Source of the DNA: Erysipelotrichaceae bacterium | GTDB lineage: Bacteria; Bacillota_I; Bacilli_A; Erysipelotrichales; Erysipelotrichaceae | Assembly: GCA_051893335.1 (NCBI GenBank) | Contig: JBJFHD010000084.1 | Span: 16,001 to 40,000 of the forward strand | DNA: 24,000 nucleotides | Direction of reading: 5' to 3' | In this document: positions 2,461 through 23,441 of the stretch, one piece after another | How the letters are laid out: every line of letters starts with the position of its first letter | Position numbering within the stretch: position 1 is the first letter of the stretch | Notes under the pieces: generated by a model | What the model was told of the DNA's origin: nothing | Seen by the model: only the letters and a program-made list of their open reading frames with translations | The model's database searches: none | Made by a program: the position numbers and the translations under genes

Positions 2461-2499
2461 AAAAAGGGATCTTCAATAATGATAGGAAGACCCTTTTTT
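2461..2499. terminator. Bidirectional rho-independent terminator between the convergent feoB operon and the helicase gene
   Basis: Stem GGG(A)TCTTC 2466-2474 pairs with GAAGACCC 2486-2493 (8 bp, one bulged A) around an 11-nt loop. An A5 run (2461-2465) lies upstream and a T6 run (2494-2499) downstream, so a U-tract follows the hairpin on either strand. Confidence 0.75.
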
Positions 2500-5859: not shown

Positions 5860-6321
5860 ATGAACTTCGGTGAAGAAATAAAAAAGATTAGGGAGGCCAA
5901 TGGGCTGACTCAACAACAGTTTGCGGACAAACTAAATGTAACAAGGCAGGCAATATCCAACTGGGAAAACAACAAGAATTTACCGGATATTGAAATGCTG
6001 ATAAGCATAGCAGACAAATTTGATTTGTCTTTGGATCAATTATTAATGAAAGATGGAGATGATAACATGAAAACAAAAATCATTAAAGACGGAAGTGAAA
6101 CATTGAGAGCTAAATATAATATGGTGACAACCTTAATCGGTTCATTTCTGTTAGTGATGGGAGCGTTTTGTTTCTTTGTGAAAGCCGCTTCGGTAGAGTA
6201 TATTGATGAACAGGGATTTTTGCATGAGAATTTCTTTTTAATCCCGATTGGCTATTTATTGCTTTTATCAGGAATAATTGTGTTGTTGATACAATTATTT
6301 AAGAATATTAGAAAAAAATAG
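5860..6321 (+). CDS. Membrane-tethered XRE-family (HTH_3) transcriptional regulator with two C-terminal TM helices
   Basis: The N-terminus IKKIREANGLTQQQFADKLNVTRQAISNWENNKNLPDIEMLISIADKFDLSLDQLL is a canonical Cro/C1-type HTH. Hydrophobic helices lie at aa ~88-107 (VTTLIGSFLLVMGAFCFFV) and ~124-147 (FFLIPIGYLLLLSGIIVLLIQLF). RBS GAGAGG at 5848-5853. Confidence 0.9.
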   Translation: MNFGEEIKKIREANGLTQQQFADKLNVTRQAISNWENNKNLPDIEMLISIADKFDLSLDQLLMKDGDDNMKTKIIKDGSETLRAKYNMVTTLIGSFLLVMGAFCFFVKAASVEYIDEQGFLHENFFLIPIGYLLLLSGIIVLLIQLFKNIRKK

Positions 6322-6445
6322 TAAATTTTTAGTTATTTAGAAAAGAAAAGTAATACTTTCGCTTCGCTTTGTGATATTATTATTTCGTGTCAATATCTTT
6401 TTTGCGTGGGTTTACGCAAATAGTAAAAGAAATGGGGGCGAAACT

Positions 6446-9829: not shown

Positions 9830-9856
9830 AAAAACACTACAGTAGGTAGTGTTTTT
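9830..9856. terminator. Bidirectional terminator between the nitroreductase (+) and transketolase (-) genes
   Basis: AAAAACACTAC (9830-9840) and GTAGTGTTTTT (9846-9856) are exact reverse complements with loop AGTAG. The A/T runs form part of the arms and overlap the transketolase stop codon. Confidence 0.65.
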
Positions 9857-10793
9857 ATAATAATGATTTTGCTTTTTCCATGATGGTTTCATTATCCAAA
9901 CCGTAAATCGGAAACAGTGATTGACGATTTCCGGTTTGTCCAAAACAGTCTTTAACCGCAACATAATCATATTTAATGTTACCGACTTTGCCAAAAAGAC
10001 TGGCAGTGCAGCTTTCCGAAAAACCGCCAAATATATTGTGCTCCTCGACTGTCAGCAGGTTATTTGTTTGCTTAACATATTTTAATAATGTTTCGCCATC
10101 AAAAGGTTTAATTGTATGATAATTCAAGACAGTACATTCAATTCCCTGTTGGCTTAGCTGTTTGGCAACATCCATAACAAATGTAGTCATTATACCGGTG
10201 GAAGCGATCGTTAAATCTTTGCCTTCTCTTAAAACTTGGGCTTTGCCGATTTGAATATCATCATCAGGACTTGTAACGTTTTTCACCGGTTCTCTTGAAG
10301 TACGCATATAGCAATATCCGTTATATTCATACATTTTCTGTACCATTAGACGAGTCTGATTATAATCGCAAGGATTTAAAACGACCATATCAGGGATTAC
10401 TTTCATCCAGGCAATATCTTCAATACACATATGCGAACCGCCATCTGCTGCCGGAGTAATCCCGCAATGTGAGCCAACCAGTTTAACATTAGCATGGTTG
10501 TATCCAACCGCATTTCTGACAATTTCACAGGCTCTACCGGCGGTAAACATCGCAAAGCTGGTTACGAAAGGGACATAGCCGACGCTGGCAAGTCCTGCGG
10601 CCATTCCGACTTCGTTTTGTTCGGCAATGCCGGCTTCAATATATCTGTCAGGATAGGCGTTTCTGAAAGCACTGGTTCCGGTAGCTCCGCCTAAATCACC
10701 TTCAAGTACAATTACATCTTGGTACTTTGCACCGATATCCAATAAACCCTGGCCATAGCCGGCACGGGTTGCTAATAATTTTACTTCTTCCAT
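9855..10793 (-). CDS. Split transketolase, C-terminal subunit (pyrimidine-binding plus C-terminal domains)
   Basis: 312 aa. RYIEAGIAEQNEVGMAAGLASVGYVPFVTSFAMF is a typical transketolase Pyr-domain signature. The gene starts 2 nt after the stop of the N-terminal subunit gene. Confidence 0.93.
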   Translation of the reverse strand: MEEVKLLATRAGYGQGLLDIGAKYQDVIVLEGDLGGATGTSAFRNAYPDRYIEAGIAEQNEVGMAAGLASVGYVPFVTSFAMFTAGRACEIVRNAVGYNHANVKLVGSHCGITPAADGGSHMCIEDIAWMKVIPDMVVLNPCDYNQTRLMVQKMYEYNGYCYMRTSREPVKNVTSPDDDIQIGKAQVLREGKDLTIASTGIMTTFVMDVAKQLSQQGIECTVLNYHTIKPFDGETLLKYVKQTNNLLTVEEHNIFGGFSESCTASLFGKVGNIKYDYVAVKDCFGQTGNRQSLFPIYGLDNETIMEKAKSLL

Positions 10794-10795
10794 AC

Positions 10796-11608
10796 TTATG
10801 CCTCCTCGATTTCCTTTAATGCAATTTCCAATTGTTCTTTGTTTGGAGCTTTGCCATGGAAAGCACAGTTGCCTTCCATAAATGAAACGCCTTTGCCTTT
10901 TACGGTGTGGGCTAAGATTACATGAGGTTTATCATCCTGATGATTTTTGAAGGCATTAACCAACTCTTGAAAATTGTGACCGTCAATTTCGTCAACTACA
11001 AAACCGATGGCTTGATAACGCAACTTCAAATCCCCCAAATCCATTATTTCTTTGGTTGTGCCGTCGAGTTGAACTGCATTAACATCAACAATGTAAGTTA
11101 AATTGTCAAGTTTGTAGTGAACTGCCGCACTGGCAGCTTCCCATACAATGCCTTCATCGGATTCACCATCACCGATAATAACATAGACTTTCTGGTCGCT
11201 GTTTTTCATTTTGTAGCCAAGTGCCATACCGGTTGCGGCTGATACTCCCTGACCTAAAGAGCCGGGATTAAAGTCGGTAAAAGGAGTCTTGCCTTTGACA
11301 GGGTGACCTTGAAGCCGGCTGCCTTGTTTTCTGAATGTCGCCATTTCTTCTCTTGATAAGATACCTTTTTCAATCATATAAGCATATTGAGCCGGAACTG
11401 CGTGGCCTTTTGAGAAGACAAAACGATCTCTGTTTGGATCATCTATGCCGGATAATAATCTCATTTCGTGTTCAAATAAAACGATTAATATTTCAACGCA
11501 TGATAAAGATCCGCCCGGGTGACCTGAGTTAGCTAAATAACACATTTGCAGTATATCTTTTCGCATTTCTTTAGCAAGAGATTTCCATTGACTGAAATTG
11601 TTGTCCAT
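10796..11608 (-). CDS. Split transketolase, N-terminal thiamine-diphosphate-binding subunit
   Basis: 270 aa. SGHPGGSLSCVEIL, FSKGHA and the ThDP/metal motif GDGESDEGIVWEAASAA are present. RBS GGGGGA lies 8 nt before the ATG (complement of 11606-11608). Confidence 0.93.
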   Translation of the reverse strand: MDNNFSQWKSLAKEMRKDILQMCYLANSGHPGGSLSCVEILIVLFEHEMRLLSGIDDPNRDRFVFSKGHAVPAQYAYMIEKGILSREEMATFRKQGSRLQGHPVKGKTPFTDFNPGSLGQGVSAATGMALGYKMKNSDQKVYVIIGDGESDEGIVWEAASAAVHYKLDNLTYIVDVNAVQLDGTTKEIMDLGDLKLRYQAIGFVVDEIDGHNFQELVNAFKNHQDDKPHVILAHTVKGKGVSFMEGNCAFHGKAPNKEQLEIALKEIEEA

Positions 11609-11718: not shown

Positions 11719-11747
11719 TTGACAATTCTTTGATAAAAAAATATCAT
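11719..11747 (+). promoter_or_regulatory. Sigma-A-type promoter candidate for the yhfZ-like regulator gene
   Basis: TTGACA (11719-11724), a 17-nt spacer, then TATCAT (11742-11747), 39 nt upstream of the ATG at 11786. The spacer contains the small inverted repeat TGATA-A6-TATCA (11731-11746). Confidence 0.5.
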
Positions 11748-11785: not shown

Positions 11786-12706
11786 ATGATTAATGATATT
11801 CTGATGTCCAAAAACGGTTTGGCGACTAAAACGATTGCGAAAGAGTTTATCAAAATAAATTTAGGGGACAGAGTTCCCACGGTTTCGGAATTTTGTGAGT
11901 TGTTTTCTTTTCCGAGAGGAACAGTACAGAAAGCAATAAAAACATTACAGGAATGTGAGGCAATCCGACTGGAATCAAAGGGTCATCTTGGCTCATATCT
12001 AATCAGAAAAAATATGAAAATCTTGCTGGAAGTAAGTGATATCAACAATATTGTCGGCAGTATGCCTTTGCCATATTCAAAAAGATATGAAGGACTGGCG
12101 ACCGGATTAATTGTGGCTCTGGAAAATGCCTATAACATTCCGGTCAGTTTGGCATTTATGCGTGGGGCGGAAGCCAGAATAAGCATGGTAGTGTGTCAAA
12201 GGTATGATTTTGCGGTTGTTTCCGCTTTGGCTGCCGATCATTTCATTCGTAAATATGGTGAAATCGATGTTATTTTATCGCTCGGTCAAAACTCTTATGT
12301 CAGCAATCATGTAATCATGTTTCACGATAAAAATGCGACAGAAATAACGGACGGTATGAAAGTGGGCATCGACCAGCAATCGTTGGATCAGAAAACAATG
12401 ACAATGCGGATTTGCAAGGGCAAAAAAATATCCTATGTCCAATTGGAATATACTCAGATTATTACGAAAATTTTAAATGGTGAAATCGATGCGGCAGTGA
12501 TGAATGTCGATGAAGTTAAAGACAAAAATATCGATATTAACTATGTTACTTTAGATTGTTATGACAAACTTGACACTGAGGCTGTGCTGGTTGGTTTGAA
12601 AAAAAGAAAAGAATTATTTGTTCTGTTAAGAGAAATAATTGATGTAAATACAGTCAAAAATATTCAGAATTTGGTAATGGATGGCAAGATTACCCCAAGT
12701 TATTAA
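11786..12706 (+). CDS. yhfZ: YhfZ-family regulator: GntR-like winged HTH plus YhfZ C-terminal (binding-protein-like) domain
   Basis: 306 aa. The N-terminal VPTVSEFCELFSFPRGTVQKAIKTLQECEAIRLESKGHLGSYL fits a GntR-type wHTH. The MPLPYSKRYEGLATGL block and the RYDFAVVSALAA segment match my memory of E. coli YhfZ. RBS GAGGTG at 11772-11777. Confidence 0.75.
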   Translation: MINDILMSKNGLATKTIAKEFIKINLGDRVPTVSEFCELFSFPRGTVQKAIKTLQECEAIRLESKGHLGSYLIRKNMKILLEVSDINNIVGSMPLPYSKRYEGLATGLIVALENAYNIPVSLAFMRGAEARISMVVCQRYDFAVVSALAADHFIRKYGEIDVILSLGQNSYVSNHVIMFHDKNATEITDGMKVGIDQQSLDQKTMTMRICKGKKISYVQLEYTQIITKILNGEIDAAVMNVDEVKDKNIDINYVTLDCYDKLDTEAVLVGLKKRKELFVLLREIIDVNTVKNIQNLVMDGKITPSY

Positions 12707-12757
12707 AAAAACGGGAATAAATTTTAATTATTTCATGAAAATACATTATTTAGTATA

Positions 12758-12786
12758 TTGACACCCTCTATATAGTAGGGTAAACT
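12758..12786 (+). promoter_or_regulatory. Promoter candidate for the yhfU-yhfT... operon, with a palindrome filling the spacer (candidate operator)
   Basis: TTGACA (12758-12763), a 17-nt spacer, then TAAACT (12781-12786). The spacer reads CCCT-CTATATAG-TAGGG. CTATATAG (12768-12775) is a perfect palindrome, and the flanks CCCT/AGGG are complementary with one extra T. Confidence 0.5.
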
Positions 12787-12838
12787 AAAAATGCGAAATG
12801 GTTTAATATTTCTTGAAAGGGAAGGAGGATAATGCCAT

Positions 12839-13198
12839 ATGAAAATCGTGGTTGGAGGACAGATGGACAAGCAATCAATTGCTCGTATGATTGAATCAAT
12901 TGTCGGCGATAAAGCGACTGTTGAGATTAAGAGTGATATTGAAGCAACTTTAGCTGTTCAGATGGGCCAAGCTGATTATTATGTCGGGGCTTGTTCAACA
13001 GGAGCCGGAGGGGCTCTGGGAATTGCGACCGGGTTATTGGGTCCTGCTAAGTGTGTATCAATTTCTACACCTGCAAAAACAATGACTCAGGAAGAAATCA
13101 AAGAAGAAGTAGCGAAAGGAAAAGTTGCTTTCGGCTTTGTTAATTATGATGCTGAAAAGGTTGTTCCGATGTTACTTGATGCTCTACTAAACAAGTAA
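12839..13198 (+). CDS. yhfU: YhfU/DUF2620-family small soluble protein with a Cys-Gly-rich loop
   Basis: 119 aa. MKIVVGG.. leads to ADYYVGACSTGAGGALGIATG and KGKVAFGF, which matches my memory of E. coli YhfU (about 117 aa; YYIGAC.TGAG..L). RBS GGAGG at 12824-12828, 10 nt before the ATG. Confidence 0.8.
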   Translation: MKIVVGGQMDKQSIARMIESIVGDKATVEIKSDIEATLAVQMGQADYYVGACSTGAGGALGIATGLLGPAKCVSISTPAKTMTQEEIKEEVAKGKVAFGFVNYDAEKVVPMLLDALLNK

Positions 13199-13231
13199 AG
13201 AAATTAAACAATAAAAAGGAGAATAAATATT

Positions 13232-14551
13232 ATGGTTTATGAAGTTAATTTTGTGACAGTAATTGTAATGGCTCTTGTTGGTGCTGTTGCTTCATACTTG
13301 TCAAATCAAAACGTTGCTGTATTTAACGATGGTACTCGTCCAATGTATGGTCCATATATCAATGGTCAGACAGACAGAAAGACATTGTTTGCGACAAGTT
13401 TTGCTTTATCATTTGGTTTGGTTATCGGATTTGGTTTACCAACATCAATTGCCGGCGGTATTATTATTGTTCACACAATCTTACTTGCTTGTGACATTAT
13501 CGGTGTTGCTTTCAAGGATGACAAAAAAGGAATGGTTCTTGCTACTGCATGCGGCGCTTTATTTGGCGTTGTATTGATGTTCGGTATGCAGGCAATCATC
13601 AATTTATTCGCATTAATGCCGGTAGATTTCTTAGGTCACTTAGATAAAGTCGGCGGACTTGTAATTACATTATTCGTTGTATTCCCTGCTTTAGCAGTTG
13701 CTTATCAGGGCGGATTTGTTCCTGGTGCTATCGTATTAGGTTTAACAATGCTTGTTAAACAGGTAGTTTCTTTATATGGTAAATTCACAGTTAATGAAGT
13801 AACAGTTTCATTAAACTCTGATGGTATGGCATTATTGTTCGGTATTGTCGCAATGGTAGTTTATGCTGCTGTCTGGGGCAAGAAGAATACCGGAAGTGCA
13901 ACAGATGTATTCAAGGTATTTGAAAAGAACATTGACAGAATCAAGAAGAATGTTGTTATGTTAGCAATCTCTGGTGGTTTAGTAGCTGCTGCAACAGCAT
14001 TATGCTTAATTGCTGAAGGTCCTGCTTCATTAACATTAACAGCACAGGGTAACTATACTGAAGCTGCTATCGTTGCTTTAGGCAGATGTTTAGGCTTTAT
14101 CCCATTAGTAATGACTACCGCAATTATTTCCGGAGTATATTCACCTTGCGGAACAAAAGCTGTGCATATTCCTGCTATCTTATTGATTAACATGGGATTA
14201 ATGGGAGCCGTTGGAAGCTTCTTCATCGGTGCCTTAATCATGGTTGTTGAAGTATTGTTACTGGGCTTCATTGCTAAAGGAATGGATAAATTCCCTGGAA
14301 TGAAGGATTTGGGTGATAACACTCGTACTGCTATGAGCAAGATTTTGGATATTGCCTTATTAGTCGGCGGTATGATGGCTGCTAATGCTATCGCTCCAAC
14401 TTTAGGTTATGTTTGGGTTATCGGCTTACACTTCCTTAACCAGACAGCTAAAAAACCTATTCCGGCAATGGCTATCGGTCCGGTAGGTGCTATTTCATTA
14501 GGTATTTTAGTTAACTTATTACATTTAATTGGATTATTCCCAATTTCATAG
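13232..14551 (+). CDS. yhfT: YhfT-family polytopic inner-membrane permease
   Basis: 439 aa, almost entirely hydrophobic, with roughly 10-12 predicted helices. The size (E. coli YhfT is about 434 aa as I recall) and the position next to the yhfU homologue support the call. RBS AAGGAG at 13216-13221. Confidence 0.75.
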   Translation: MVYEVNFVTVIVMALVGAVASYLSNQNVAVFNDGTRPMYGPYINGQTDRKTLFATSFALSFGLVIGFGLPTSIAGGIIIVHTILLACDIIGVAFKDDKKGMVLATACGALFGVVLMFGMQAIINLFALMPVDFLGHLDKVGGLVITLFVVFPALAVAYQGGFVPGAIVLGLTMLVKQVVSLYGKFTVNEVTVSLNSDGMALLFGIVAMVVYAAVWGKKNTGSATDVFKVFEKNIDRIKKNVVMLAISGGLVAAATALCLIAEGPASLTLTAQGNYTEAAIVALGRCLGFIPLVMTTAIISGVYSPCGTKAVHIPAILLINMGLMGAVGSFFIGALIMVVEVLLLGFIAKGMDKFPGMKDLGDNTRTAMSKILDIALLVGGMMAANAIAPTLGYVWVIGLHFLNQTAKKPIPAMAIGPVGAISLGILVNLLHLIGLFPIS

Positions 14552-14563
14552 TAAAAAATAATA

Positions 14564-14596
14564 ATGGGACAATTAAGATGTTGTCCCATTTTTTTA
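14564..14596 (+). terminator. Intrinsic terminator/attenuator hairpin inside the operon, between yhfT and the PRD protein gene
   Basis: Perfect 9-bp stem ATGGGACAA (14564-14572) / TTGTCCCAT (14581-14589) with an 8-nt loop, followed by T7 (14590-14596). It lies 13 nt after the yhfT stop and 7 nt before the next gene's RBS. Confidence 0.7.
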
Positions 14597-14616
14597 AATA
14601 GTTGAGGGAGAAAAAG

Positions 14617-14967
14617 ATGGATACAATACAGTTTAGATTGGATATTTTAAATAAATCGGGAATTATTAATGATCAGGAAAAAGAAGTGCTGGAAAAATGG
14701 CTTGAAATAATTAATGATTTTTCCCAAAACTTTAATCAGGAAAAAATTGAACGAATGATAACTCATTGTGCAATGATGATGAAAAGAAAAAGAGATAATC
14801 AAGATATCGGAACTTTACCTGATGAAGTGTATCAATCTATTAAAGAGCATGAAAATTATCACGATTGCGTTCAACTATTTAACAAAATGAACGAATTATA
14901 CCAAGTAAACTCTCAGGAAGAGAAGTATTTGATTCTTCATTTATGCAGTTTATTTGAGAGGGAGTAG
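14617..14967 (+). CDS. yhfY: Stand-alone PRD-domain protein (YhfY-like)
   Basis: 116 aa from the ATG at 14617, with RBS GAGGGAG at 14604-14610. The track starts at the TTG at 14602. The protein is all-helical with two His in PRD-like contexts, ITHCAMMMKR (H50) and YLILHLCSLF (H108), 58 residues apart, like the two phosphorylatable His of a PRD. Size matches E. coli YhfY (about 120 aa). Confidence 0.7.
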   Translation: MDTIQFRLDILNKSGIINDQEKEVLEKWLEIINDFSQNFNQEKIERMITHCAMMMKRKRDNQDIGTLPDEVYQSIKEHENYHDCVQLFNKMNELYQVNSQEEKYLILHLCSLFERE

Positions 14968-14969
14968 CT

Positions 14970-15830
14970 ATGAAATTAGATAATATAACATATTCTCACG
15001 AACATATGGTCATTGATTTGACAAAGGGCAAAAATGATCCGGATTGTTATTTGAATTTATATCAGATGGCAATAGACGAATTGAAAGAAATAAGAAGTAA
15101 GGGCGTAAGTAGAATTGTTGATTGTTCCAATCATGGAATTGGAGTTGATTGGGAAGTAAACCGTTTAATTGAACAGGAAACGGGGATAAAAATTATCAAC
15201 TCAACCGGTTGTTATAAGGACCCGTTTTTACCATCATGGTTTCAAGATAAGACAATCGAACAATTGGCTGATCTCTTTTTAGCTGATTTAAACAGTAAGG
15301 CAGAGGTTATCGGGGAAATCGGTACCAGCAATAATGTGATGACTGAAAATGAAAAGAAACTGTTTGAAGCCAGTGCTTTAGCTTATCATAAAGCAGCTAA
15401 AAAACCGGTAATCATTACTCATACTACTTTAGGCACTTGCGCTTTACAACAAGTTGAATTTTTTAAAGCTCATAATGTTGACTTACGCAAGGTTATCATC
15501 AGTCACACTGCCTTAGCAAATGATCTCGGGCTGATCTTACAATTACTAAAGCAAGGAGTTAATATCGCCTTTGACACGATAGGAAAAAAGAAATATCTGC
15601 CGGATCAAACCAGAGCCATCTTTATCAAGGAAGCAATTGATAACGGTTATCGGGATCAGTTATTGATGTCGATGGATTTGACTAGACAATCGCATTTAAA
15701 GAAAAACGGCGGTGTCGGTTTGTCGTATCTAATTGACAGTTTTATTCCGGAATTGCTGAATTTGTCAGTTAAAGAGAGTGATATTGAAACAATTACCTGT
15801 TGTAATTTTGAAAGGATTTTGAATATATGA
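14970..15830 (+). CDS. php: Phosphotriesterase-homology protein (Php/YhfV; amidohydrolase-superfamily binuclear metal hydrolase)
   Basis: 286 aa. All six Php metal-ligand positions are present: H10/H12 (SHEH), E116 (GEIGTS, a Glu in place of the carbamylated Lys of true phosphotriesterases), H151 (ITHT), H179 (ISHT) and D236 (SMDLTR). Long blocks match E. coli Php as I remember it (FDTIGK, LSMD.TR.SHLK.NGG.G..YL...FIP.L). Confidence 0.92.
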   Translation: MKLDNITYSHEHMVIDLTKGKNDPDCYLNLYQMAIDELKEIRSKGVSRIVDCSNHGIGVDWEVNRLIEQETGIKIINSTGCYKDPFLPSWFQDKTIEQLADLFLADLNSKAEVIGEIGTSNNVMTENEKKLFEASALAYHKAAKKPVIITHTTLGTCALQQVEFFKAHNVDLRKVIISHTALANDLGLILQLLKQGVNIAFDTIGKKKYLPDQTRAIFIKEAIDNGYRDQLLMSMDLTRQSHLKKNGGVGLSYLIDSFIPELLNLSVKESDIETITCCNFERILNI

Positions 15831-16930
15831 AAGCCTACCCATTAGAAAGTATTTCTTTAGAAAAAGCCATGCAGTTTCAGTTTAAAATGATAGACTGCAT
15901 TACCACGGAATTTACCGGAAGCGAATTTTTAACTCGTGGTGATTTAGGAGTGGTTGCGGGTTTGAATAAACCTAAAACAACTTTAAAAGCTGAAAAAGTA
16001 GTGGCAAAGTTTTTTGACAGTGAAAAAGCTATCTTTGTTAGAGGGACAGGCACCTCAGCAATTAGATATGCCTTATATTCAGTATGCAAAAGCAATGAAA
16101 CATTGTTGGTTCATACTTCTCCGATATATTCAACAACCAAGACTTCCATAGAGATGCTGGGGATTAAAACAGTAGCTGCTGATTTTAATGATTTAGAGGA
16201 TATTGAAAGAGTGCTGAAACAGCATCCGGAAATAAAAGCGGCTTTAGTTCAGGTTACTAGGCAGTCTGTAAGTGACAGTTATGATTTACAGCAGGTTATC
16301 GCCAAGATTAAGTCGGTAAAAAATATTCCGGTTGTAACAGACGACAATTATGCCGTAATGAAGATTGAAAAGATCGGTTGTCAATGCGGTGCAGATTTAT
16401 CCTGCTTTTCCTGCTTTAAACTGCAAGGTCCGGAAGGAATCGGTTGTGTAGTCGGAAAGAGTGAATATATCGACTTCTTGATTAAAGAGCATTATTCCGG
16501 CGGAAGCCAAACTCAAGGCTGGGAAGCAATGGAAGTATTAAGAGGTTTGGTTTACTCTCCTGTTATGCTGGCTATTCAGGCTCAGACCAATGACGAATGT
16601 GTAAAAAGATTAAACGATGGGGAAATAGAGGAGGTTAAAGAAGCATTTTTAGCCAACGCTCAATCAAAAGTCTTGTTAGTAGAATTCAACCAGCCAATTG
16701 CTAAACAAGTAATAATTGAAGCTGAAAAACTGGGCGGTTTGCCAAATCCGGTTGGAGCTGAGTCAAAATATGAAATTCCACCGATGTTTTACCGTGTTTC
16801 CGGTACATTTAGAGCAAGTGATCCGACAATCGATGACAGAATGATTAGAATTAATCCTAACAGATCAGGTGCTGATACAATTATCAGAATCTTAAAAGAA
16901 AGCATTAAGAGGGCAAAACAATGTTTATAG
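15827..16930 (+). CDS. yhfS: YhfS-family fold-type I PLP-dependent enzyme
   Basis: 367 aa. GTGTSAIRYAL, DDNYAVM and the candidate Schiff-base lysine in SCFSCFK (K198, nt 16418-16420) fit the fold. The start overlaps the php stop (ATGA at 15827-15830). Size and context match E. coli YhfS (about 361 aa). Confidence 0.75.
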   Translation: MKAYPLESISLEKAMQFQFKMIDCITTEFTGSEFLTRGDLGVVAGLNKPKTTLKAEKVVAKFFDSEKAIFVRGTGTSAIRYALYSVCKSNETLLVHTSPIYSTTKTSIEMLGIKTVAADFNDLEDIERVLKQHPEIKAALVQVTRQSVSDSYDLQQVIAKIKSVKNIPVVTDDNYAVMKIEKIGCQCGADLSCFSCFKLQGPEGIGCVVGKSEYIDFLIKEHYSGGSQTQGWEAMEVLRGLVYSPVMLAIQAQTNDECVKRLNDGEIEEVKEAFLANAQSKVLLVEFNQPIAKQVIIEAEKLGGLPNPVGAESKYEIPPMFYRVSGTFRASDPTIDDRMIRINPNRSGADTIIRILKESIKRAKQCL

Positions 16931-18084
16931 ATCAAACGCTAAAATTAAACCGTAATTTGATAGCTGCTTGCTTTTCTCTGCACCAGAATGGCTTAATTTT
17001 ACCTGACAGCTATGTAGTTGATGTCGATCGTTTTCTTGCCAATAGCAAGATGATATTAGATAAGGCCGGTGAGAATAATCTAGCTTGTTACTTTATGCTC
17101 AAGCAGATCGGTCGAAATCCTTATTTGGCAGCAAAATTGATTGAAATGGGTTATAAGGGAGCGGTAGTTGTTGATTTTAAAGAGGCTCTGGTGATGATGA
17201 AACATCATATCCATATCAGTAATGTCGGTCATTTGGTTCAAATCCCTAAAGCTCTATTACAGAAGCTGGTTGACTACGGCTGTGATTACTATACAGTTTT
17301 TTCCTATCAGAAAATTCTTGACTTAAATCAGTGTGCTAAAAAGAGCAATAAAAAGATTAAATTGATGTTAAGAGTAACTGATGACAGTGATATAGTATAC
17401 AGCGGTCAAACTGCCGGATTTTATTTACATCAACTGGAAGAACTGGTAAATCAGGTTAAAAAATTAGAATATGTTGAGATAAAAGGGGTTACTTCTTTTC
17501 CGTGTTTTCTTTATGATGAAACACTCGGAAAAATTGCTCCGACAAATAATTTAAACACCGTTTTAAAAGCAAAAGAATTGCTGGAAGCACTGGGGGAGAA
17601 AATCGATAATGTCAATGCCCCTTCAACTTCTTCAGTCGCAACGATTGAAGCAATGCAAAACTATCCGATTAACAGTATTGAACCGGGACACGGTTTATCC
17701 GGCACAACCCCGCTTCATGCCAGCAAGAAGTGTCAGGAGGTACCTGCTGTGGCATATGTCAGTGAAGTGTCTCACAATTATGATGGTTTAGCTTACTGTT
17801 ATGGCGGAGGGCATTACCGCAGAAGTCATGTTAAAAACGCTTTAGTCGGCAAGTCAATCGATGATTTTAAAAAAGTCACAGTCATTGCTCCTAACGATGA
17901 TAGTATCGATTATCATTTTGGACTAAGCGAAAAATGTCAGGAAAATGATACGGTTATAATGGCATTTAGATATCAGATTTTTGTGACAAGAAGTAATGTT
18001 GTGCTGTTAAGCGGGTTAAGTGGCAACAATCCTAAAAAAGAAGGAATTTATAACAGTTTAGGAGATGAGATAAAAGATGAGTAA
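16921..18084 (+). CDS. yhfX: YhfX-family alanine-racemase-fold (fold-type III) PLP enzyme
   Basis: 387 aa, the same length as E. coli YhfX as I recall. There is an N-terminal TIM-barrel-like pattern with a candidate PLP lysine in CYFMLKQIGRNP. The gene overlaps yhfS by 10 nt. RBS AAGAGGG at 16907-16913. Confidence 0.7.
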   Translation: MFIDQTLKLNRNLIAACFSLHQNGLILPDSYVVDVDRFLANSKMILDKAGENNLACYFMLKQIGRNPYLAAKLIEMGYKGAVVVDFKEALVMMKHHIHISNVGHLVQIPKALLQKLVDYGCDYYTVFSYQKILDLNQCAKKSNKKIKLMLRVTDDSDIVYSGQTAGFYLHQLEELVNQVKKLEYVEIKGVTSFPCFLYDETLGKIAPTNNLNTVLKAKELLEALGEKIDNVNAPSTSSVATIEAMQNYPINSIEPGHGLSGTTPLHASKKCQEVPAVAYVSEVSHNYDGLAYCYGGGHYRRSHVKNALVGKSIDDFKKVTVIAPNDDSIDYHFGLSEKCQENDTVIMAFRYQIFVTRSNVVLLSGLSGNNPKKEGIYNSLGDEIKDE

Positions 18085-19288
18085 AAGATTTATTATCATT
18101 GTCTTAGATGGTTTTGGCATCGGAGCAATGAGTGATGCTGCTCAAGTCAGAGCCGGTGATGAAAAAGCCAACACATTAAGAAGCATATTAAATGATTGCC
18201 CTGATTTAAAGTTACCTACTTTGGAAAAGCTGGGCTTAATGAATGCCTATGGTCAGGAGAGTCTGAATATGAAGTTTGCTGAAAAGGCAAATTACGGCAA
18301 GAGCGAACTGGCTCATTTTGGCGCAGATACATTTATGGGGCATCAGGAGATTATGGGGACTTTCCCTAAAAAGCCTGAAGTGCATCCTTTCCAGCAAAAA
18401 GCTCAGGCAGTATATGAACATTTGAAGGAAAACGGTCACAAAGTGGAGTACAAACAAGAACAAGGTTTAAGATATGTTGTTTGTGATGATTATGTGACTA
18501 TTGCTGATAATCTGGAAGCTGATTTAGGTATGTGTTACAATGTCACCGCTCCGTTAGACTACATTAGTTTTGAAAAAGAACTGGAAATCGGTAGACTGAC
18601 CAGAGAAGTTGTTACGGTTGGTAGAGTTATTGTATTTGGCGGTACCGGCAATAATATGCAGGATTTATATAATGCTCAGGAAATAAGAAACGGTAAGTAT
18701 ATCGGAATTGCCAGCGCAAAATCCAAATCTTATGAGCATGGCTATCAATGTCGTCATCTTGGCTATGGGGTTGATAAAAACGTTCAGGTGCCTACTATCC
18801 TGACTCGAAACGGTATAGCTTGTACTTTGATCGGTAAAGTAGCCGATATTGTCTCAAACGATGGGGGAACAAGTATTTCCTGTGTTGATACTGATGAGTG
18901 TATGCAGCTGACACTAGATGCGATTAAAGCAATGGACAGGGGTTTTATTTGCACGAATATTCAAGAAACCGATTTGGCAGGTCATTCACAAGACAGCCAG
19001 GTGTATCGTCAAATCCTTGAAAAAGCCGATAGAGGAATTGAAAGAATTTTACCTTTATTGACCGAGGATGATATTTTGATTATTCAGGCTGATCACGGTA
19101 ATGATCCTGATATCGGCAGCAGCAGACATACAAGAGAATGTGTGCCTTTGTTAATCTACAAAAAAGGGTTGAGTAATGTCAGAGTCGGCACAAGAAAAAC
19201 CATGAGTGATAACGGAGCTACCTGTTGTGATTTCTTTAATGTGGAGAAATGTGAAAACGGGACATCTTATCTGGATTTGTTGCTGTAG
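18077..19288 (+). CDS. yhfW: YhfW-family metallo-phosphomutase (phosphopentomutase/DeoB-like, alkaline-phosphatase superfamily)
   Basis: 403 aa. IIIVLDGFGIGAMSDA, ETDLAGHSQD and IQADHGNDPD correspond to the metal-binding motifs of DeoB-type mutases. The gene overlaps yhfX by 8 nt. Confidence 0.85.
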   Translation: MSKRFIIIVLDGFGIGAMSDAAQVRAGDEKANTLRSILNDCPDLKLPTLEKLGLMNAYGQESLNMKFAEKANYGKSELAHFGADTFMGHQEIMGTFPKKPEVHPFQQKAQAVYEHLKENGHKVEYKQEQGLRYVVCDDYVTIADNLEADLGMCYNVTAPLDYISFEKELEIGRLTREVVTVGRVIVFGGTGNNMQDLYNAQEIRNGKYIGIASAKSKSYEHGYQCRHLGYGVDKNVQVPTILTRNGIACTLIGKVADIVSNDGGTSISCVDTDECMQLTLDAIKAMDRGFICTNIQETDLAGHSQDSQVYRQILEKADRGIERILPLLTEDDILIIQADHGNDPDIGSSRHTRECVPLLIYKKGLSNVRVGTRKTMSDNGATCCDFFNVEKCENGTSYLDLLL

Positions 19289-19462
19289 TCAAGGATGTTT
19301 TAATTTGTTGTAAAATCAGGTTTGAACCAAAAAGTGTTAAGTGAGTTAGTTTAAAGATGAAAAGAACTAAGAGAGAAACTTTTCAATTACAGTGAGTTAC
19401 CACTAATAATCATTAATGGTGGTCAATTGATAATAAATAATATTAAAAAATTGTATGGTTAG

Positions 19463-19496
19463 GGCTTTTGTGGAGTGAACAAAGCCTTTTTTCTTT
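19463..19496 (+). terminator. Rho-independent terminator closing the yhf-type operon
   Basis: GGCTTT(T)GT (19463-19471) pairs with ACAAAGCC (19479-19486): 8 bp with one bulged T and loop GGAGTGA. TTTTTTCTTT follows. It lies 175 nt downstream of the yhfW stop. Confidence 0.7.
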
Positions 19497-19630: not shown

Positions 19631-20524
19631 ATGTTAGTTTCAATGAAAGAGATTTTGGAGAGAGCAAGTGCTGAAAATTATGCTGTTGCAGCTCCAAATG
19701 TATTTACAGAATTAGATGTTAGAGCATTTATTCAAGCAGCAGAAGAATTAAGAGCCCCTTTAATTCTTGATTTTGGTTTTAAGGCTGCTGACGATTTAAT
19801 GATGTCCGGTCAAATGATTAGACAGTTATGTATTCAATCAAATGTTCCGATTGCATTGAATTTAGACCATGGCGGAGATTATTCTCAAATAATAGGAGCA
19901 ATCAATGCAGGATTTACCTCAGTTATGGTTGACCGTTCATCTTTACCGTTTGAGGATAATGTAGCTCAAACAAAGTATGTAGTTGATATTGCCCATACTG
20001 TTGGTATTTCAGTTGAAGCTGAGTTAGGTCATGTTGGACAAGCACAACAATATGATGTTGATAGAAATGCTAAATTAACTTCACCTGAACAGGCAGTTGA
20101 GTTTATTGAAAAAACAGGAGTTGACTGTTTAGCAGTTGCTATCGGAACTGCTCATGGTGCTTATCCGAGAGGATTTACTCCGTATCTTGATTTTGATAGA
20201 TTGGCTGAAATAAAGAAAGCAACTAACAATTTCCCTCTGGTACTTCACGGTTCTTCAGGAACGAAAGAAGAAGACCTAAAAAAAGTATGCTCAATGGGCA
20301 TTAATAAAGTTAATATTTGCAACGATATTTTACAGCACATCGTGAAAGTATTGCATGAAACTGATTTAGAAGGTCAAAAAGCATATCAATTGTGGCCAAC
20401 TGCTCAAAAAGCTGCAAAAGACTATTTAAAACACATGATAAAAGACGTATATGGCTCAGCCGGGAAGGCTTGGGTACCTGTCAATCATGGTATTCCTTAT
20501 AAGGGAAAAGAAATGGCTGAATAA
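19631..20524 (+). CDS. Class II (Zn-dependent) ketose-/fructose-bisphosphate aldolase, catalytically complete
   Basis: 297 aa. NLDHG (D79, H80; CAT at 19868-19870), VEAELGHVG (E131), IGTAHG (H175) and LVLHGSSG (H206) are all present, so the three Zn histidines of GatY/AgaY-type aldolases are intact. RBS AAGGAGG at 19616-19622. Confidence 0.92.
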   Translation: MLVSMKEILERASAENYAVAAPNVFTELDVRAFIQAAEELRAPLILDFGFKAADDLMMSGQMIRQLCIQSNVPIALNLDHGGDYSQIIGAINAGFTSVMVDRSSLPFEDNVAQTKYVVDIAHTVGISVEAELGHVGQAQQYDVDRNAKLTSPEQAVEFIEKTGVDCLAVAIGTAHGAYPRGFTPYLDFDRLAEIKKATNNFPLVLHGSSGTKEEDLKKVCSMGINKVNICNDILQHIVKVLHETDLEGQKAYQLWPTAQKAAKDYLKHMIKDVYGSAGKAWVPVNHGIPYKGKEMAE

Positions 20525-20552
20525 ATAAACATACATAGAAATTTATGTCCTT

Positions 20553-20583
20553 ATAAACTGCAAATTAAACATTTGCAGTTTAT
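20553..20583. repeat. Perfect 13-bp inverted repeat (hairpin without a U-tract) between the two aldolase genes
   Basis: ATAAACTGCAAAT (20553-20565) and ATTTGCAGTTTAT (20571-20583) are exact reverse complements with loop TAAAC. The hairpin is flanked by a 9-nt direct repeat ATACATAGA (20531-20539 and 20592-20600). Confidence 0.7.
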
Positions 20584-20615
20584 GCATAATAATACATAGA
20601 GAGGAAATACCCAAA

Positions 20616-21461
20616 ATGTTAGTAAACATGATAGATATGCTGAAGAAAGCAAGGACGGGTAAATATGGTATTGCAGCTCCAAACATCTGCAATGAAATCA
20701 CTGCTCGTGCGGCAATATTGGCAGCCGAGGAAAATGATGCGCCGATAATCATTGATTTAGTATTCAAAGCGAATCCGGATATCCCATTGCTTACAAAGAT
20801 GGTTGTTGAGATGGCTGAAAAAGCGACAGTTCCTGTTGCACTGAATTTGGATTACTGTATTTCCTACGAAGAAACCATGCAAGCTTTGAAACTCGGTTTT
20901 ACTTCTGTATCTTTAGATAGGACTGACAAACCGATAGATCAAAATATCAAGGAAACAATAGAAATAGTTGAAGTTGCTCATGCTTTAAATGCCAGCGTTG
21001 AGGGACAACTTGGCAGGGTAGTATCTGCAAAAGGTAACAATTATCTGGATAGGGGTTTATTAACCGAACCTGATTTGGTAAAAGAATATATTGAGAAAAC
21101 CAATATTGATGCTTTAGCAATTTCAATTGGTAATGCCAGAGGCAAATATGATTCAGAAGTTAGAATTGATTTTGATAGGTTAGAGAGAATTAATAAAGAA
21201 TCAAGCGTTCCCTTGTGTATTCATGGTGGTTCTTATACCGGAATTGATAATTTGAAAAAAATGATATATAACGGAGTTACAAAAATCAATTTGAGTACGG
21301 AACTGTATTCTTCCGGAAATGATGCTGTCTTAAATGGGAATAACTGCTTTCAAAAACCCTATGAACTGTTTGATGTATATTCTAATGGGTACAAGGATAA
21401 GTTAGTCGAGTATATGTCGGCATTTGGTCAAATCGGTAAAGCAAAGGAAACAATTAAATGA
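20616..21461 (+). CDS. Class II aldolase paralogue with a degenerate metal site (probable non-catalytic or neofunctionalised subunit)
   Basis: 281 aa, alignable along its length with the upstream aldolase (MLVNMIDMLKKA.. vs MLVSMKEILERA..; VPVALNLD, GFTSVSLDR, DFDRLE). Key positions differ: NLDYC (Y80; TAC at 20853-20855) replaces NLDHG, VEGQLGR (Q131) replaces VEAELGH, and IGNARG (R175) replaces IGTAHG. Only the third His (CIHGG, H203) is kept. Confidence 0.85.
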   Translation: MLVNMIDMLKKARTGKYGIAAPNICNEITARAAILAAEENDAPIIIDLVFKANPDIPLLTKMVVEMAEKATVPVALNLDYCISYEETMQALKLGFTSVSLDRTDKPIDQNIKETIEIVEVAHALNASVEGQLGRVVSAKGNNYLDRGLLTEPDLVKEYIEKTNIDALAISIGNARGKYDSEVRIDFDRLERINKESSVPLCIHGGSYTGIDNLKKMIYNGVTKINLSTELYSSGNDAVLNGNNCFQKPYELFDVYSNGYKDKLVEYMSAFGQIGKAKETIK

Positions 21462-22267
21462 TAAAAACACTGTTTTGCGATTTGGATTACACACTTTTGA
21501 CTGATGATAAAGAATTACTTGTAGATAATATTCTAGCAATTAATGAACTTAGGAAGTCAGGCTGTGATTTTGTTATTTGTACCGGAAGGATGCCATTTCT
21601 AATTCAAAATATAGTCTCTATATTAAGGCTTGGAACTAAAGATTTGTGCATATGTGCCAACGGAGGGGTAATATGCGATGCAAAAGGAAGAAAGCTTGCA
21701 TCTTACCCGATAGAAGCTGCTATGACTCAAAGACTTACTAAGTTGGCAAAAGAAGAACGACTTGGTTTATTTGCGTCATCACTTTCTGAAATAAAATGCA
21801 TTAATAAAGAAGTGATTGAGTCAACGAAAGTAGAGGGCCATGTCGCTTTGCAGGAATTGAGCTATCAGGAAATAAACCGGTTTATTGAACAGGATATCTA
21901 TAAGTTATCTTTAGTCAGCCCGGATTATGCTTATTTAATGAAATTGTGTGCCTCTTTTGAAAAGGAAGAGACAATATCAGCAGCTTTTTCTTCAAATTCT
22001 ACCATTGAGATTGTTAATGGTAACAGAAGTAAAGCAAGAGCAGTAAAAGACATAATGAAGATGAAAAACATCAATGAAAATGAAATAGCAGTTATTGGCG
22101 ACAATATGAATGACATTTCGATGTTTGAGTTGACAAATAATTGTTATTGTCCAAAGAACGCTACTGATGAGATAAAGAGTATGAGCAGCTATATTTCCAT
22201 AAAGACAAATAATGAAGCAGCAGTAGCAGATATCGTGTGGAACATAATTCTAAAGAAAGGAGATTAA
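21458..22267 (+). CDS. HAD-superfamily Cof-type (IIB) sugar-phosphate phosphatase
   Basis: 269 aa. Motif I is FCDLDYTLL (DxD), motif II is ICTGR, and motif IV is VIGDNMNDISMF. The start overlaps the aldolase-paralogue stop (ATGA at 21458-21461). Confidence 0.88.
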   Translation: MIKTLFCDLDYTLLTDDKELLVDNILAINELRKSGCDFVICTGRMPFLIQNIVSILRLGTKDLCICANGGVICDAKGRKLASYPIEAAMTQRLTKLAKEERLGLFASSLSEIKCINKEVIESTKVEGHVALQELSYQEINRFIEQDIYKLSLVSPDYAYLMKLCASFEKEETISAAFSSNSTIEIVNGNRSKARAVKDIMKMKNINENEIAVIGDNMNDISMFELTNNCYCPKNATDEIKSMSSYISIKTNNEAAVADIVWNIILKKGD

Positions 22268-22268
22268 C

Positions 22269-23441
22269 ATGAAAGATTTTACCTTTTTCTCTCCCACAAA
22301 ATTCTATTTTGGAAAAGGCGTTGAGAAAAATGTTGGAGTTTATTTGAAAGAATACGGAGCAAAGAAAGTAATGTTATTTCATTATGGAGCTCCATATGAA
22401 CAGCAGCTTATCGATCAAACCGTAAATTTGTTAAATGAAAATGGGATGGAATGTATCGATTTTGCGGGAATAAAGCCAAATCCTCATTGGGAAGATGCCG
22501 AAAGAGGTGCGCAGATTTGTAAAGAAGAAGGTGTCGACTTCTTACTTGCTGTTGGCGGAGGCAGTGTTATTGATACAGCAAAATATGTTTCGATAGCAGC
22601 ATGTTATCAAGGAGATACTTATAGTGATTTCTATTTAAGTAATAAGAAAATAGAGAAAACTTTACCGTTATCAGTAATAGCTACTATTGCAGGAACCGGA
22701 GCAGAAGCCTCAAATAGTTCAGTAATAACAAAAGGAGAATTAAAACGCAGTTGTAATCAAGATGTAATTAGACCAAAGATTGCGATTTTGAATCCTGAGT
22801 TAACATATACGGTACCTCCATTTCAGACTGCTTCTGGAGCAGTAGACATTATGGCTCATGTTCATGAAAGATACTTTACAAAAGACAGAGAAACATATTT
22901 AACTGATGGTTTATGTGAGGCAATCTTCAGAGCAGTAATTAAGTATTTGCCTATCGCACTTAAAGAACCAACAAATTATGAAGCAAGAGCAACATTATTG
23001 TGGGCAAGCATTATTGGTCATAATGAATCGGTTGGTGTCGGAAGAGATTTCTCTGAAAGATATGGTTTAGCCCATACAATTCAGAGTGAAATCGGAGGAA
23101 AATACAACTCAATTCATGGAGCTGGATGTGCATTGACCACTCTTGGAATGATGAAATATTGTTACAAATACGATATGGACCGATTTGAAAGATATTTTAA
23201 CCAAGTTTGGGGAATTCCAATTGATCCTTTAGATAGAGAAGGAATGATTTTAAAAGGAATTCAAATGCAGGAAGACTTCTATGTAAGTTGCGGAATTCCA
23301 GTTCATTACGCTGATTATGGCGTTAAGGAAGAAGATATCGAAGAATTAATCAGCACTATTAGAAAAGGACCTGATGGAACAATTTCAGGACTACACCTAA
23401 CTGATGATGATATGCGTGAAATATTTAAATTGATGAAATAA
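22269..23441 (+). CDS. Iron-containing (group III) alcohol dehydrogenase, BdhA/YqhD-like
   Basis: 390 aa. The GGGSVIDTAK nucleotide-binding motif is present, as are the metal-site elements AVDIMAHVHE and HG..C. RBS AAGGAG at 22257-22262. The gene starts 1 nt after the HAD stop. Confidence 0.9.
   Translation: MKDFTFFSPTKFYFGKGVEKNVGVYLKEYGAKKVMLFHYGAPYEQQLIDQTVNLLNENGMECIDFAGIKPNPHWEDAERGAQICKEEGVDFLLAVGGGSVIDTAKYVSIAACYQGDTYSDFYLSNKKIEKTLPLSVIATIAGTGAEASNSSVITKGELKRSCNQDVIRPKIAILNPELTYTVPPFQTASGAVDIMAHVHERYFTKDRETYLTDGLCEAIFRAVIKYLPIALKEPTNYEARATLLWASIIGHNESVGVGRDFSERYGLAHTIQSEIGGKYNSIHGAGCALTTLGMMKYCYKYDMDRFERYFNQVWGIPIDPLDREGMILKGIQMQEDFYVSCGIPVHYADYGVKEEDIEELISTIRKGPDGTISGLHLTDDDMREIFKLMK

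Follow-up and report, generated by a model that had tools for sequence, protein, structure and literature searches.

Background

The yhfZ-yhfY-yhfX-yhfW-php-yhfU-yhfT-yhfS cluster of Escherichia coli K-12 (b3383-b3376) is among the largest operons of that strain still without a function. We describe herein the same eight-gene system in a stretch of 24,000 nucleotides from a gut-type Erysipelotrichaceae bacterium (contig JBJFHD010000084.1, positions 16,001 to 40,000; this whole stretch is hereafter called the window), where it spans positions 11786-19288. The cluster holds two families of pyridoxal-5'-phosphate (PLP) enzymes, one hydrolase family, one mutase family, one membrane-protein family and one small RpiB-like family, none of which has a characterised member. 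In a September 2026 copy of RefSeq, the E. coli products carry such names as "putative hydrolase", "uncharacterized protein YhfT" and "putative mutase YhfW", and PDB entries 4J8L and 4KBX were deposited as "Uncharacterized protein YhfS" and "Uncharacterized protein YhfX". A search of open-access papers and preprints, which could miss a paper in a subscription journal, turned up no functional study of the gene set and no pathway for it. All of this agrees with the first-pass annotation of the window, made by a model from the sequence without database searches, which had stated that no function is assigned to the block. Solving the function would probably add a catabolic route of gut, oral and environmental anaerobes, and might bring to light a new way of taking up or phosphorylating a substrate.

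The closest described systems resemble the cluster in layout. The D-glucosaminate (dga) operon of Salmonella contains a phosphotransferase system (PTS). Enterococcal clusters in which SFCGS, DUF4312, DUF4311 and DUF4310 proteins accompany an amidohydrolase, a DgaE-type PLP ammonia-lyase and a KDPG-aldolase have small Cys-rich and membrane proteins at the corresponding place (PMC11934601). Like the Yhf cluster, the SFCGS clusters combine a small glycine-rich Cys protein, one or more novel membrane proteins, an amidohydrolase-fold hydrolase, a fold-type I PLP enzyme and PRD-type regulation, and have no kinase. However, no significant sequence relation between the two was found. Homology between DUF2620, the family of YhfU, and Gly_rich_SFCGS was considered and rejected, the sole signal being a Pfam match at E 0.92, and no SFCGS protein was found in the loci fetched for comparison; because sequence support is lacking, it is operon layout that links DUF2620 to SFCGS. 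Moreover, YhfS matches no SelA/DgaE model, and the Yhf cluster is without an aldolase but has a second PLP enzyme and a mutase.

A second parallel is found in PTS clusters of the ula/sga type with COG1735 lactonases (Lmo2620, MS53_0025), in which, as in the Yhf cluster, a binuclear hydrolase of the PTE family stands beside sugar-phosphate enzymes (PMC10971088). Genes for EIIB, EIIC-GAT and EIIA_2 flank the Yhf cluster itself in Treponema and Clostridium tertium loci. The differences are that Php uses a bridging Glu, that the window is without canonical EII genes, and that ula-type clusters are without PLP enzymes.

Results and Discussion

Identity of the cluster in the window

The eight genes are contiguous and lie on the same (+) strand. 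The first four are yhfZ (11786-12706), for a regulator of 306 amino acids (aa) with a GntR-type helix-turn-helix (HTH_41) and a YhfZ_C ligand-binding domain; yhfU (12839-13198), for a 119-aa DUF2620 protein with an RpiB/LacAB-like fold; yhfT (13232-14551), for a 439-aa polytopic membrane protein, presumably a permease; and yhfY (14617-14967), for a 116-aa stand-alone PRD-domain protein. They are followed by php (14970-15830), for a 286-aa binuclear-metal hydrolase of the amidohydrolase fold (PTE family); yhfS (15827-16930), for a 367-aa fold-type I PLP enzyme; yhfX (16921-18084), for a 387-aa fold-type III (alanine-racemase-fold) PLP enzyme; and yhfW (18077-19288), for a 403-aa phosphopentomutase-like metalloenzyme.

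Each window protein matches only its namesake in E. coli K-12, and the eight pairs align over full length at 23-54% identity. The E. coli products, in the order Z-Y-X-W-php-U-T-S, are of 301, 120, 387, 408, 292, 117, 434 and 361 aa. These lengths, as given in the first-pass annotation, agree with the fetched K-12 region, and the lengths that it gave for the window proteins are those of the open reading frame (ORF) coordinates. Its central claim, that the eight genes match the E. coli yhf/php families, is borne out by comparison with the E. coli proteins and with Pfam and NCBIfam: every ORF goes to its expected family. The translational coupling that it described is also there. php and yhfS share 4 nucleotides (nt), an ATGA read directly in the sequence at 15827-15830, and according to the ORF coordinates yhfS and yhfX overlap by 10 nt, yhfX and yhfW overlap by 8 nt, and yhfY and php are separated by 2 nt; the last five genes, yhfY-php-yhfS-yhfX-yhfW, are translationally coupled.

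It is near certain that the cluster is the Erysipelotrichaceae orthologue of the E. coli system. The two share the same eight families, contiguous and on one strand, and the same Php ligands. They differ in gene order, in a terminator hairpin that follows yhfT in the window, and in their neighbours, the fructoselysine operon frlABCDR and trpS in E. coli as against a split transketolase in the window; the frl adjacency is found only in E. coli. What is new here is the host lineage and the gene order, for a system that was already known yet is uncharacterised. The Bacillus subtilis genes yhfS, yhfT, yhfU and yhfW are unrelated to their E. coli namesakes and dominate text searches, and are a trap for automated annotation transfer. 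"B3379" in PMC9396866, considered as a gene number, is a strain name.

Conservation of the eight genes as one unit

YhfT relatives were found in at least 452 bacterial species, a lower bound obtained by scanning one genome per species for a sequence pattern. For comparison, the best 80 loci of the 452 YhfT-bearing genomes were taken, their ORFs were called and clustered, and the clusters were labelled; together with the window and the E. coli region, these loci make up 82 sources. The eight yhf/php families are the eight most widespread clusters, each being present in 67-78 of the 82 sources. All eight are found together in 50 of the 80 loci, and 65 loci have seven or more; many of the others are truncated at contig ends. 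Among the complete loci there are 14 different gene arrangements, and the flanking genes are otherwise unrelated from one locus to another. Hosts in Bacillota are Erysipelotrichaceae, Clostridium, Enterococcus, Tissierellia and Negativicutes; others belong to Spirochaetota, Thermotogota, Fusobacteriota, Chloroflexota and Mycoplasmatota, and with Pseudomonadota, represented by the added E. coli region, at least seven phyla are covered in all. Of 5,426 complete E. coli genomes, 5,062 (93%) contain the block at a coverage of at least 80%.

Because all eight families occur together in 50 of the 80 loci, across 14 orders and at least seven phyla, there is strong evidence that the eight genes are one selected functional unit, as the first-pass annotation had argued. 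That annotation had also noted that the order is permuted, and it is (Z-U-T-Y-P-S-X-W here, with P for php, against Z-Y-X-W-P-U-T-S in E. coli). From this it had concluded that gene content, and not synteny, is kept. The first half of the conclusion stands, but the second needs an amendment, synteny being not wholly lost: adjacency is kept almost always for U-T (67 loci), P-S (69), S-X (67) and X-W (70), with median gaps of 18 nt for U-T and of only 4-9 nt for the other three pairs. It is the positions of yhfZ and yhfY that shift among loci, and the loosest junction is T-P, with a median gap of 116 nt.

The nearest genome locus (L004) comes from a metagenome-assembled genome of Erysipelotrichaceae, has a YhfT that is 92% identical, and agrees with the window in gene order and in the divergent split transketolase. 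Two short contigs labelled Bacteroides uniformis and Bacteroides sp. CAG:927 (L064, L067) carry Clostridium-like yhf genes, with a YhfT about 49% identical to that of the window; they may reflect bin contamination instead of a presence in Bacteroidota.

Presumed catalytic residues of Php, YhfS, YhfX and YhfW

The presumed catalytic residues, as judged from alignments, are kept in all four enzymes. Php matches Pfam PTE at 189 bits (cut-off 22.4; E 1.6e-55) and the E. coli Php structures in PDB entries 1BF6 and 4LEF (E 2e-55). The first-pass annotation had listed all six metal ligands, including the bridging Glu, as conserved, and the alignment with E. coli Php agrees: H10, H12, E116, H151, H179 and D236 correspond to E. 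coli H12, H14, E125, H158, H186 and D243 and are invariant in 71 homologues. The window protein scores 236 bits against the NCBIfam equivalog of E. coli Php (NF007373), the cut-off of which is 486. An assignment to the COG1735 phospho-furanose lactonases was rejected (NCBIfam NF045706, 77.6 bits against a cut-off of 630).

Characterised relatives of Php include phospho-furanose lactonases (PMC10971088), but an N-acetyltaurine amidohydrolase is found among the relatives as well (PMC11374699), and therefore a lactone substrate is not implied. The amidohydrolase in question, PTER, a eukaryotic relative, hydrolyses N-acetyltaurine and N-acetyl-beta-alanine, with Arg, His and Tyr holding the anionic group (PMC11374699, PMC13311154, PMC12873775). 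Mammalian PTER has the PTE family and the binuclear centre in common with the window Php, the relation being a distant one (PDB 9EFA, E 2.8e-18), and the helical insertion of eukaryotic PTER is not present in the bacterial proteins (PMC12873775).

YhfS is 54% identical to E. coli YhfS, with matches to Pfam YhfS-like_C (E 3e-45) and to the YhfS structure 4J8L (E 6.5e-123); its invariant residues include S195-x-x-K198 and D172. YhfX, 40% identical to E. coli YhfX, matches Pfam Ala_racemase_N and YhfX-like_C and the YhfX structure 4KBX (E 1e-92), and its K61 is invariant. The sole NCBIfam match of YhfX is a weak one to ornithine racemase. YhfW, 47% identical to E. coli YhfW, scores 571 bits against NCBIfam PRK12383 (cut-off 254). 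When YhfW is aligned with Bacillus cereus phosphopentomutase, residue D11 and the motifs D84-T85-x-x-G-H-x-E, ADHGNDP and HTRE fall on the metal ligands and the Thr nucleophile motif of that enzyme. YhfW thus resembles DeoB in its catalytic motifs, but it belongs to a separate NCBIfam family, and its score against the deoB model TIGR01696 (155 bits) is under the cut-off of 341 bits.

An RpiB-like fold in YhfU and a membrane protein without a match among solved folds

YhfU matches Pfam DUF2620 at 131 bits (E 3.9e-38), is 41% identical to E. coli YhfU and carries the invariant motif D46-x-Y48-x-G-A-C52-x-T54-G55-x-G57-G-A-L. The family is compact: among 1.84 billion proteins, 172 representatives at 50% identity match its profile, and all eight of those scanned with Pfam are DUF2620. 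An AlphaFold (AF2) model built from 41 homologues reached a mean confidence (pLDDT) of 94.6, and in a Foldseek search of the PDB its top 24 matches were all RpiB/LacAB sugar-phosphate isomerases (TM-score 0.63-0.73, E 1e-4 to 6e-3). In a short and weak alignment (hhalign E 0.026 over 26 columns), the segment C52-x-T54-G55-x-G57 is paired with C66-G-T68-G-V-G, the catalytic loop of E. coli RpiB.

The predicted structure thus marks YhfU as RpiB-like in its fold and its Cys-x-Thr-Gly loop. We do not file it as a member of the RpiB family, because it gives no match to Pfam LacAB_rpiB even at E up to 10, because it is 30 residues shorter (119 against 149 aa), neither the C-terminal phosphate-binding helix nor the His99/Asn100 loop of RpiB being found, and because only 26 columns align. 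The first-pass annotation had placed YhfU correctly in DUF2620; the fold is an addition, so that DUF2620 is not featureless. A canonical EIIB of the lactose, cellobiose or ascorbate type was also considered for YhfU and rejected: the N-terminus, MKIVVGGQMDK, is without Cys, there is no match to Pfam PTS_IIB, hhalign against UlaB gives E 0.23, and no EIIB is among the top 50 PDB fold matches. Apparent Php-YhfU and YhfU-YhfT fusions (P0259, P0328) look like artefacts of stop-codon loss or frameshift and were given no weight.

YhfT matches its Pfam family at 442 bits (E 2.8e-132) and is 30% identical to E. coli YhfT, and its hydropathy profile has about 12 hydrophobic segments. Its AF2 model (pLDDT 84) found no fold match in the PDB, the best TM-score being 0.18. 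No profile similarity to the ascorbate EIIC UlaA was detected, nor any likeness to a solved EIIC.

The regulator YhfZ and the PRD protein YhfY

YhfZ scores 371.9 bits against NCBIfam NF041241 (YhfZ_full; cut-off 260), contains Pfam HTH_41 and YhfZ_C, is 34% identical to E. coli YhfZ over its full length and matches the YhfZ structure 2OZZ (E 5e-29). For YhfY, the Pfam PRD match is marginal (24.6-24.8 bits against a cut-off of 23), with 23% identity to E. coli YhfY (BLASTP E 7e-8). The PRD motif T-H-x6-R is present, and H55 and R62, in the numbering of the ORF that starts at TTG, are invariant in 67 homologues. That TTG, at 14602, is also open as a start, but we place the start of yhfY at the ATG at 14617, because a ribosome-binding site, GAGGGAG, precedes it and because yhfY is called as 116 aa in a metagenomic contig with an identical YhfT (L002). 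A role of YhfY as an antiterminator of the BglG/LicT type was rejected; the 116 aa hold a single PRD and neither a CAT RNA-binding domain nor any other. A 267-aa high-GC protein in the representative library (P0307) has DUF2620 joined to a PRD by a low-complexity linker, and may connect YhfU with YhfY as a Rosetta-stone protein.

Additional genes at other loci

The survey of genome neighbourhoods proposed along with the first-pass annotation shows which extra genes recur: a truncated amidase, NagB, NagA, a PBP4B-like hydrolase, and Enzyme I with HPr. The most frequent, in 27 of the 80 loci (among them L037, L039, L042, L045, L052, L057 and L086), is the truncated amidase-signature protein. It has about 330-430 aa, and its gene is the ninth of the cluster, located between T and P or after W. 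Its Ser-Ser and GGGS motifs are kept and Pfam Amidase is matched across the signature only (E 2e-5). PGAP names it "amidase family protein" in Cetobacterium, and it is present neither in the window nor in E. coli.

In 7 loci, the gene immediately 3' of the cluster, on its strand, codes for a true NagB (TIGR00502, 290 bits; cut-off 237); these loci belong to Spirochaetota, Thermotogota, Negativicutes and Clostridium. A true NagA is encoded near the cluster in 3 loci. A beta-lactamase-fold serine hydrolase with PBP4B as its best-matching model occurs in 7 loci, inside the operon in four and beside it in the others; six of the seven copies start with a signal peptide or a lipoprotein signal. In E. 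coli, the PBP4B gene is the third of the murQ-murP operon for N-acetylmuramic acid.

Enzyme I and HPr of the PTS are encoded within the operon in 8 loci of Spirochaetota and Thermotogota, including L008, L016, L018, L020 and L021 in the former and L039 and L045 in the latter. No EIIA, EIIB or EIIC gene is visible near the Thermotogota loci, and in Treponema an EIIA_2 and an Mga/PRD regulator accompany Enzyme I and HPr. A pair of EIIB and EIIC-GAT genes is found at loci of Treponema and the Clostridium tertium group, besides U and T.

In the window, the cluster is adjoined by a transketolase split into two half genes, for the N- and C-terminal parts (9855-11608, - strand), which diverge from yhfZ. 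Such an adjoining split transketolase was found in 3 of the 82 sources, namely the window, L004 and L020 (Treponema lecithinolyticum); in the last it follows the cluster, beside the EIIB/EIIC-GAT genes.

Proposed function and alternatives

We tentatively propose, with a probability of roughly 0.4, that the cluster is a substrate-inducible, PTS-tied catabolic operon for a carbohydrate derivative that bears both an amine and a phosphate, and that the skeleton of this compound is sent to central metabolism. The compound would probably be released from cell-wall or glycoconjugate material, and the most likely exit of the skeleton would be as glucosamine-6-phosphate/fructose-6-phosphate or as pentose phosphate.

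Going by the chemistry of the respective families, YhfT would import the compound, and the two-metal centre of Php would open an ester, lactone or N-acyl bond beside an anionic group. YhfX would invert the amine-bearing carbon and YhfS would take off the amino group by transamination or elimination; the presence of two PLP enzymes implies that the amine sits on a stereocentre, which undergoes inversion before deamination or transamination. YhfW would shift the phosphate between two hydroxyls via a phospho-threonine, in the manner of phosphopentomutase, and YhfU, with its Cys/Thr loop, would interconvert an aldose phosphate and a ketose phosphate. With a phosphomutase and an isomerase-like protein but no kinase, the system would handle a phosphorylated compound that does not owe its phosphate to the cluster: the substrate arrives in phosphorylated form, or its phosphate is supplied by the PTS. 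YhfZ would bind DNA and sense a ligand, and YhfY, on a conservative reading, would be phosphorylated by HPr or an EII, report the state of the PTS to YhfZ and modulate it. The terminator after yhfT would set the regulator and uptake genes, Z, U and T, apart from the coupled yhfY-php-S-X-W.

Several pointers favour this proposal. The attached NagB and NagA, like the secreted PBP4B-like enzyme, suggest a substrate of the amino-sugar type, derived from cell wall or glycoconjugates, with glucosamine-6-phosphate as its end product; with NagB and NagA attached in several lineages, the earlier guess of a phosphorylated amino-sugar-type substrate gains support. YhfW, YhfU and the transketolase would fit an exit as pentose phosphate equally well. 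A tie to the PTS is suggested by the invariant His and Arg of the PRD, by the recruitment of Enzyme I and HPr in two phyla, and by the YhfU-PRD fusion; neither the recruited PTS genes nor the missing kinase had been considered in the first-pass annotation. These comparative constraints, that is, the added NagB, NagA, amidase, PBP4B-like and Enzyme I/HPr genes, the RpiB-like YhfU and the absent kinase, matter more than any surprise in the cluster itself.

Nonetheless, a number of points weigh against it. No substrate, product or phenotype is on record, and every enzymatic step is drawn from superfamily chemistry. YhfS and YhfX are isolated families; beyond the structures of their E. coli orthologues, the next PDB matches are at E 3e-4 or higher, and neither has a characterised close relative. 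The case for YhfU as an isomerase is burdened by the missing match to LacAB_rpiB, by the missing C-terminal helix and by a resemblance to E. coli RpiB in sequence that is only weak. The eight proteins include no kinase, which leaves the origin of the phosphate unexplained. NagA, NagB and the PBP4B-like enzyme are absent from most loci and may belong to some neighbouring pathway, and the pointers to glucosamine-6-phosphate and to pentose phosphate do not obviously belong to the same pathway.

The lack of a kinase, in a cluster whose phosphomutase and further enzymes presumably need a phosphorylated substrate, also suits a different explanation, which we consider unlikely, namely a new PTS group translocation. 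YhfT would then be an unrecognised EIIC, and YhfU, instead of an isomerase, an EIIB-like carrier of phosphate on Cys52. Phosphate from phosphoenolpyruvate would pass via Enzyme I and HPr onto the entering substrate, and without substrate, phosphorylated YhfU would phosphorylate the PRD sensor YhfY. PRD domains are normally controlled by a cognate EIIB, and the fusion of YhfU to a PRD in P0307 is consistent with such a relation. So are the fixed order and close spacing of yhfU-yhfT (67 loci, median gap 18 nt), the invariant Cys of YhfU in a glycine-rich, anion-hole-like loop at a strand-helix junction, the presence of Enzyme I and HPr genes within the operons of Thermotogota and Spirochaetota, and the EIIA of Treponema. 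The small Cys-rich and membrane proteins that take the place of the dga PTS in the SFCGS-DUF4312-DUF4311-DUF4310 clusters offer a parallel (PMC11934601). However, the fold of YhfU matches RpiB/LacAB with no EIIB in the top 50, its N-terminus has no EIIB-type Cys, its Pfam PTS_IIB match is missing and UlaB is reached only at E 0.23; YhfT is unlike UlaA and any solved EIIC; and the canonical EIIB and EIIC-GAT genes at the Treponema and Clostridium tertium loci would make a second permease redundant. That YhfU/YhfT, with YhfY as their readout and Enzyme I/HPr as their phosphate supply, constitute a new type of translocator, which would take up and phosphorylate a compound of the amino-sugar type by means of an RpiB-fold phospho-Cys carrier and a membrane protein without solved fold relatives, and of which SFCGS/DUF4310-4312 would be a second example, appears rather improbable.

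A non-sugar substrate appears similarly improbable. The compound would be a D-amino-acid ester or an N-acyl amino compound, such as the D-alanyl-glycerol-phosphate or D-alanyl-ribitol-phosphate of teichoic acid, or an N-acetylated amino sulfonate or phosphonate; Php would be the esterase or deacylase of such a pathway and YhfX its racemase, while YhfS would transfer the amino group and YhfW would be a mutase for polyol phosphates. The alanine-racemase fold of YhfX and its weak ornithine racemase match fit this, as do the secreted beta-lactamase-fold hydrolases of 7 loci and the truncated amidase of 27, and PTER offers a precedent in its action on N-acetyltaurine and N-acetyl-beta-alanine (PMC11374699, PMC13311154, PMC12873775). 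On the other hand, control by a PRD and the PTS typically goes with carbohydrates, sugar phosphates are suggested by the links to NagA, NagB, transketolase and an RpiB-like protein, and none of the present results is specific to teichoic acid or sulfonate chemistry.

Less probable still is the salvage of a conjugate of pentose and amino acid, such as a ribosylated or ribose-glycated amino acid, in which YhfW would convert pentose-1-phosphate to pentose-5-phosphate, YhfU would convert this to pentulose-5-phosphate for transketolase, and the PLP enzymes would take the amino-acid part. YhfW keeps every catalytic motif of phosphopentomutase, and NCBI would name it so; YhfU is RpiB-like; and a split transketolase adjoins the cluster in the window, L004 and L020, as the fructoselysine operon frl does in E. 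coli. However, no phosphorylase, kinase or deglycase is encoded, the transketolase adjacency is limited to 3 of the 82 sources and that of frl to E. coli, and linkage to NagB is more frequent. Finally, that the eight genes are not one system, but chance neighbours or the shared ancestry of a genomic island, is very improbable: a terminator-like hairpin does divide the block in the window, but the joint occurrence of the eight families in 50 loci under 14 rearranged orders and in at least seven phyla, between otherwise unrelated flanks, and their retention in 5,062 of 5,426 complete E. coli genomes already contradict it.

Putative promoters, terminators and transcription units

A promoter-like site, TTGACA-17-TATCAT on the + strand at 11719-11747, precedes yhfZ; it was found by a consensus scan only, with 11 of 12 matches, and its sequence is kept in L004. 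It lies within a 177-bp divergent region common to yhfZ and the split transketolase genes. A second promoter-like site, TTGACA-17-TAAACT (12758-12786, + strand), sits in the 132-nt spacer between yhfZ and yhfU and is surrounded by an inverted repeat, TTTAGTATA / TAAACTAAA; site and repeat are both common to L004, and the whole element (12749-12789) is a candidate for a regulated promoter and operator of yhfU-yhfT. The spacer between the -35 and -10 elements of this putative promoter (12764-12780) is itself an imperfect palindrome, CCCTCTATATAGTAGGG in the window and AGTACATATATGATGTACT in L004, the arms of which differ.

Between yhfT and yhfY, at 14563-14596 on the + strand, there is a hairpin resembling an intrinsic terminator, with an 11-bp stem, a 6-nt loop and a run of seven T (-15.2 kcal/mol, z -4.6 against shuffled sequences). 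Loci L004, L005 and L007, which have the same gene order, show a hairpin of other sequence followed by a T-run at the same place. The hairpin may set separate expression levels for the uptake and the enzyme genes, or may work as an attenuator. With this terminator-like structure inside the block, more than one transcription unit is probable: the genes would be transcribed as yhfZ, yhfU-yhfT and yhfY-php-yhfS-yhfX-yhfW, probably in two or three units. A hairpin followed by a T-run also lies 170 nt 3' of yhfW (19461-19496, + strand; -9.3 kcal/mol), and is possibly the end of the operon; because its z value is only -0.65, we regard this assignment as tentative.

Sites for CcpA (cre) were rejected, the matches being not above chance and none lying at the promoters. 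No match to Rfam families or tRNA was found anywhere in the window.

Other genes in the window

Downstream of the cluster, 19631-23441 encodes two paralogous class II ketose-bisphosphate aldolases, a Cof-type HAD phosphatase and an Fe-dependent alcohol dehydrogenase. These genes were considered as a part of the system and rejected; because they are 342 nt away and show no association with the cluster in other loci, where they are not found next to it, we treat them as a separate unit.

On the other side, 5860-8656 contains a gene for an HTH_3 and DUF3955 protein followed by one for a 761-aa VWA/SpaA-type pilin-like adhesin, both unrelated to the cluster. The region 45-5725 holds an ORF of the FeoB family, the 5' start of which is outside the window, and, on the opposite strand, a gene for a 1,075-aa UvrD-like helicase with an RQC domain and a weak match to a topoisomerase-type zinc ribbon.

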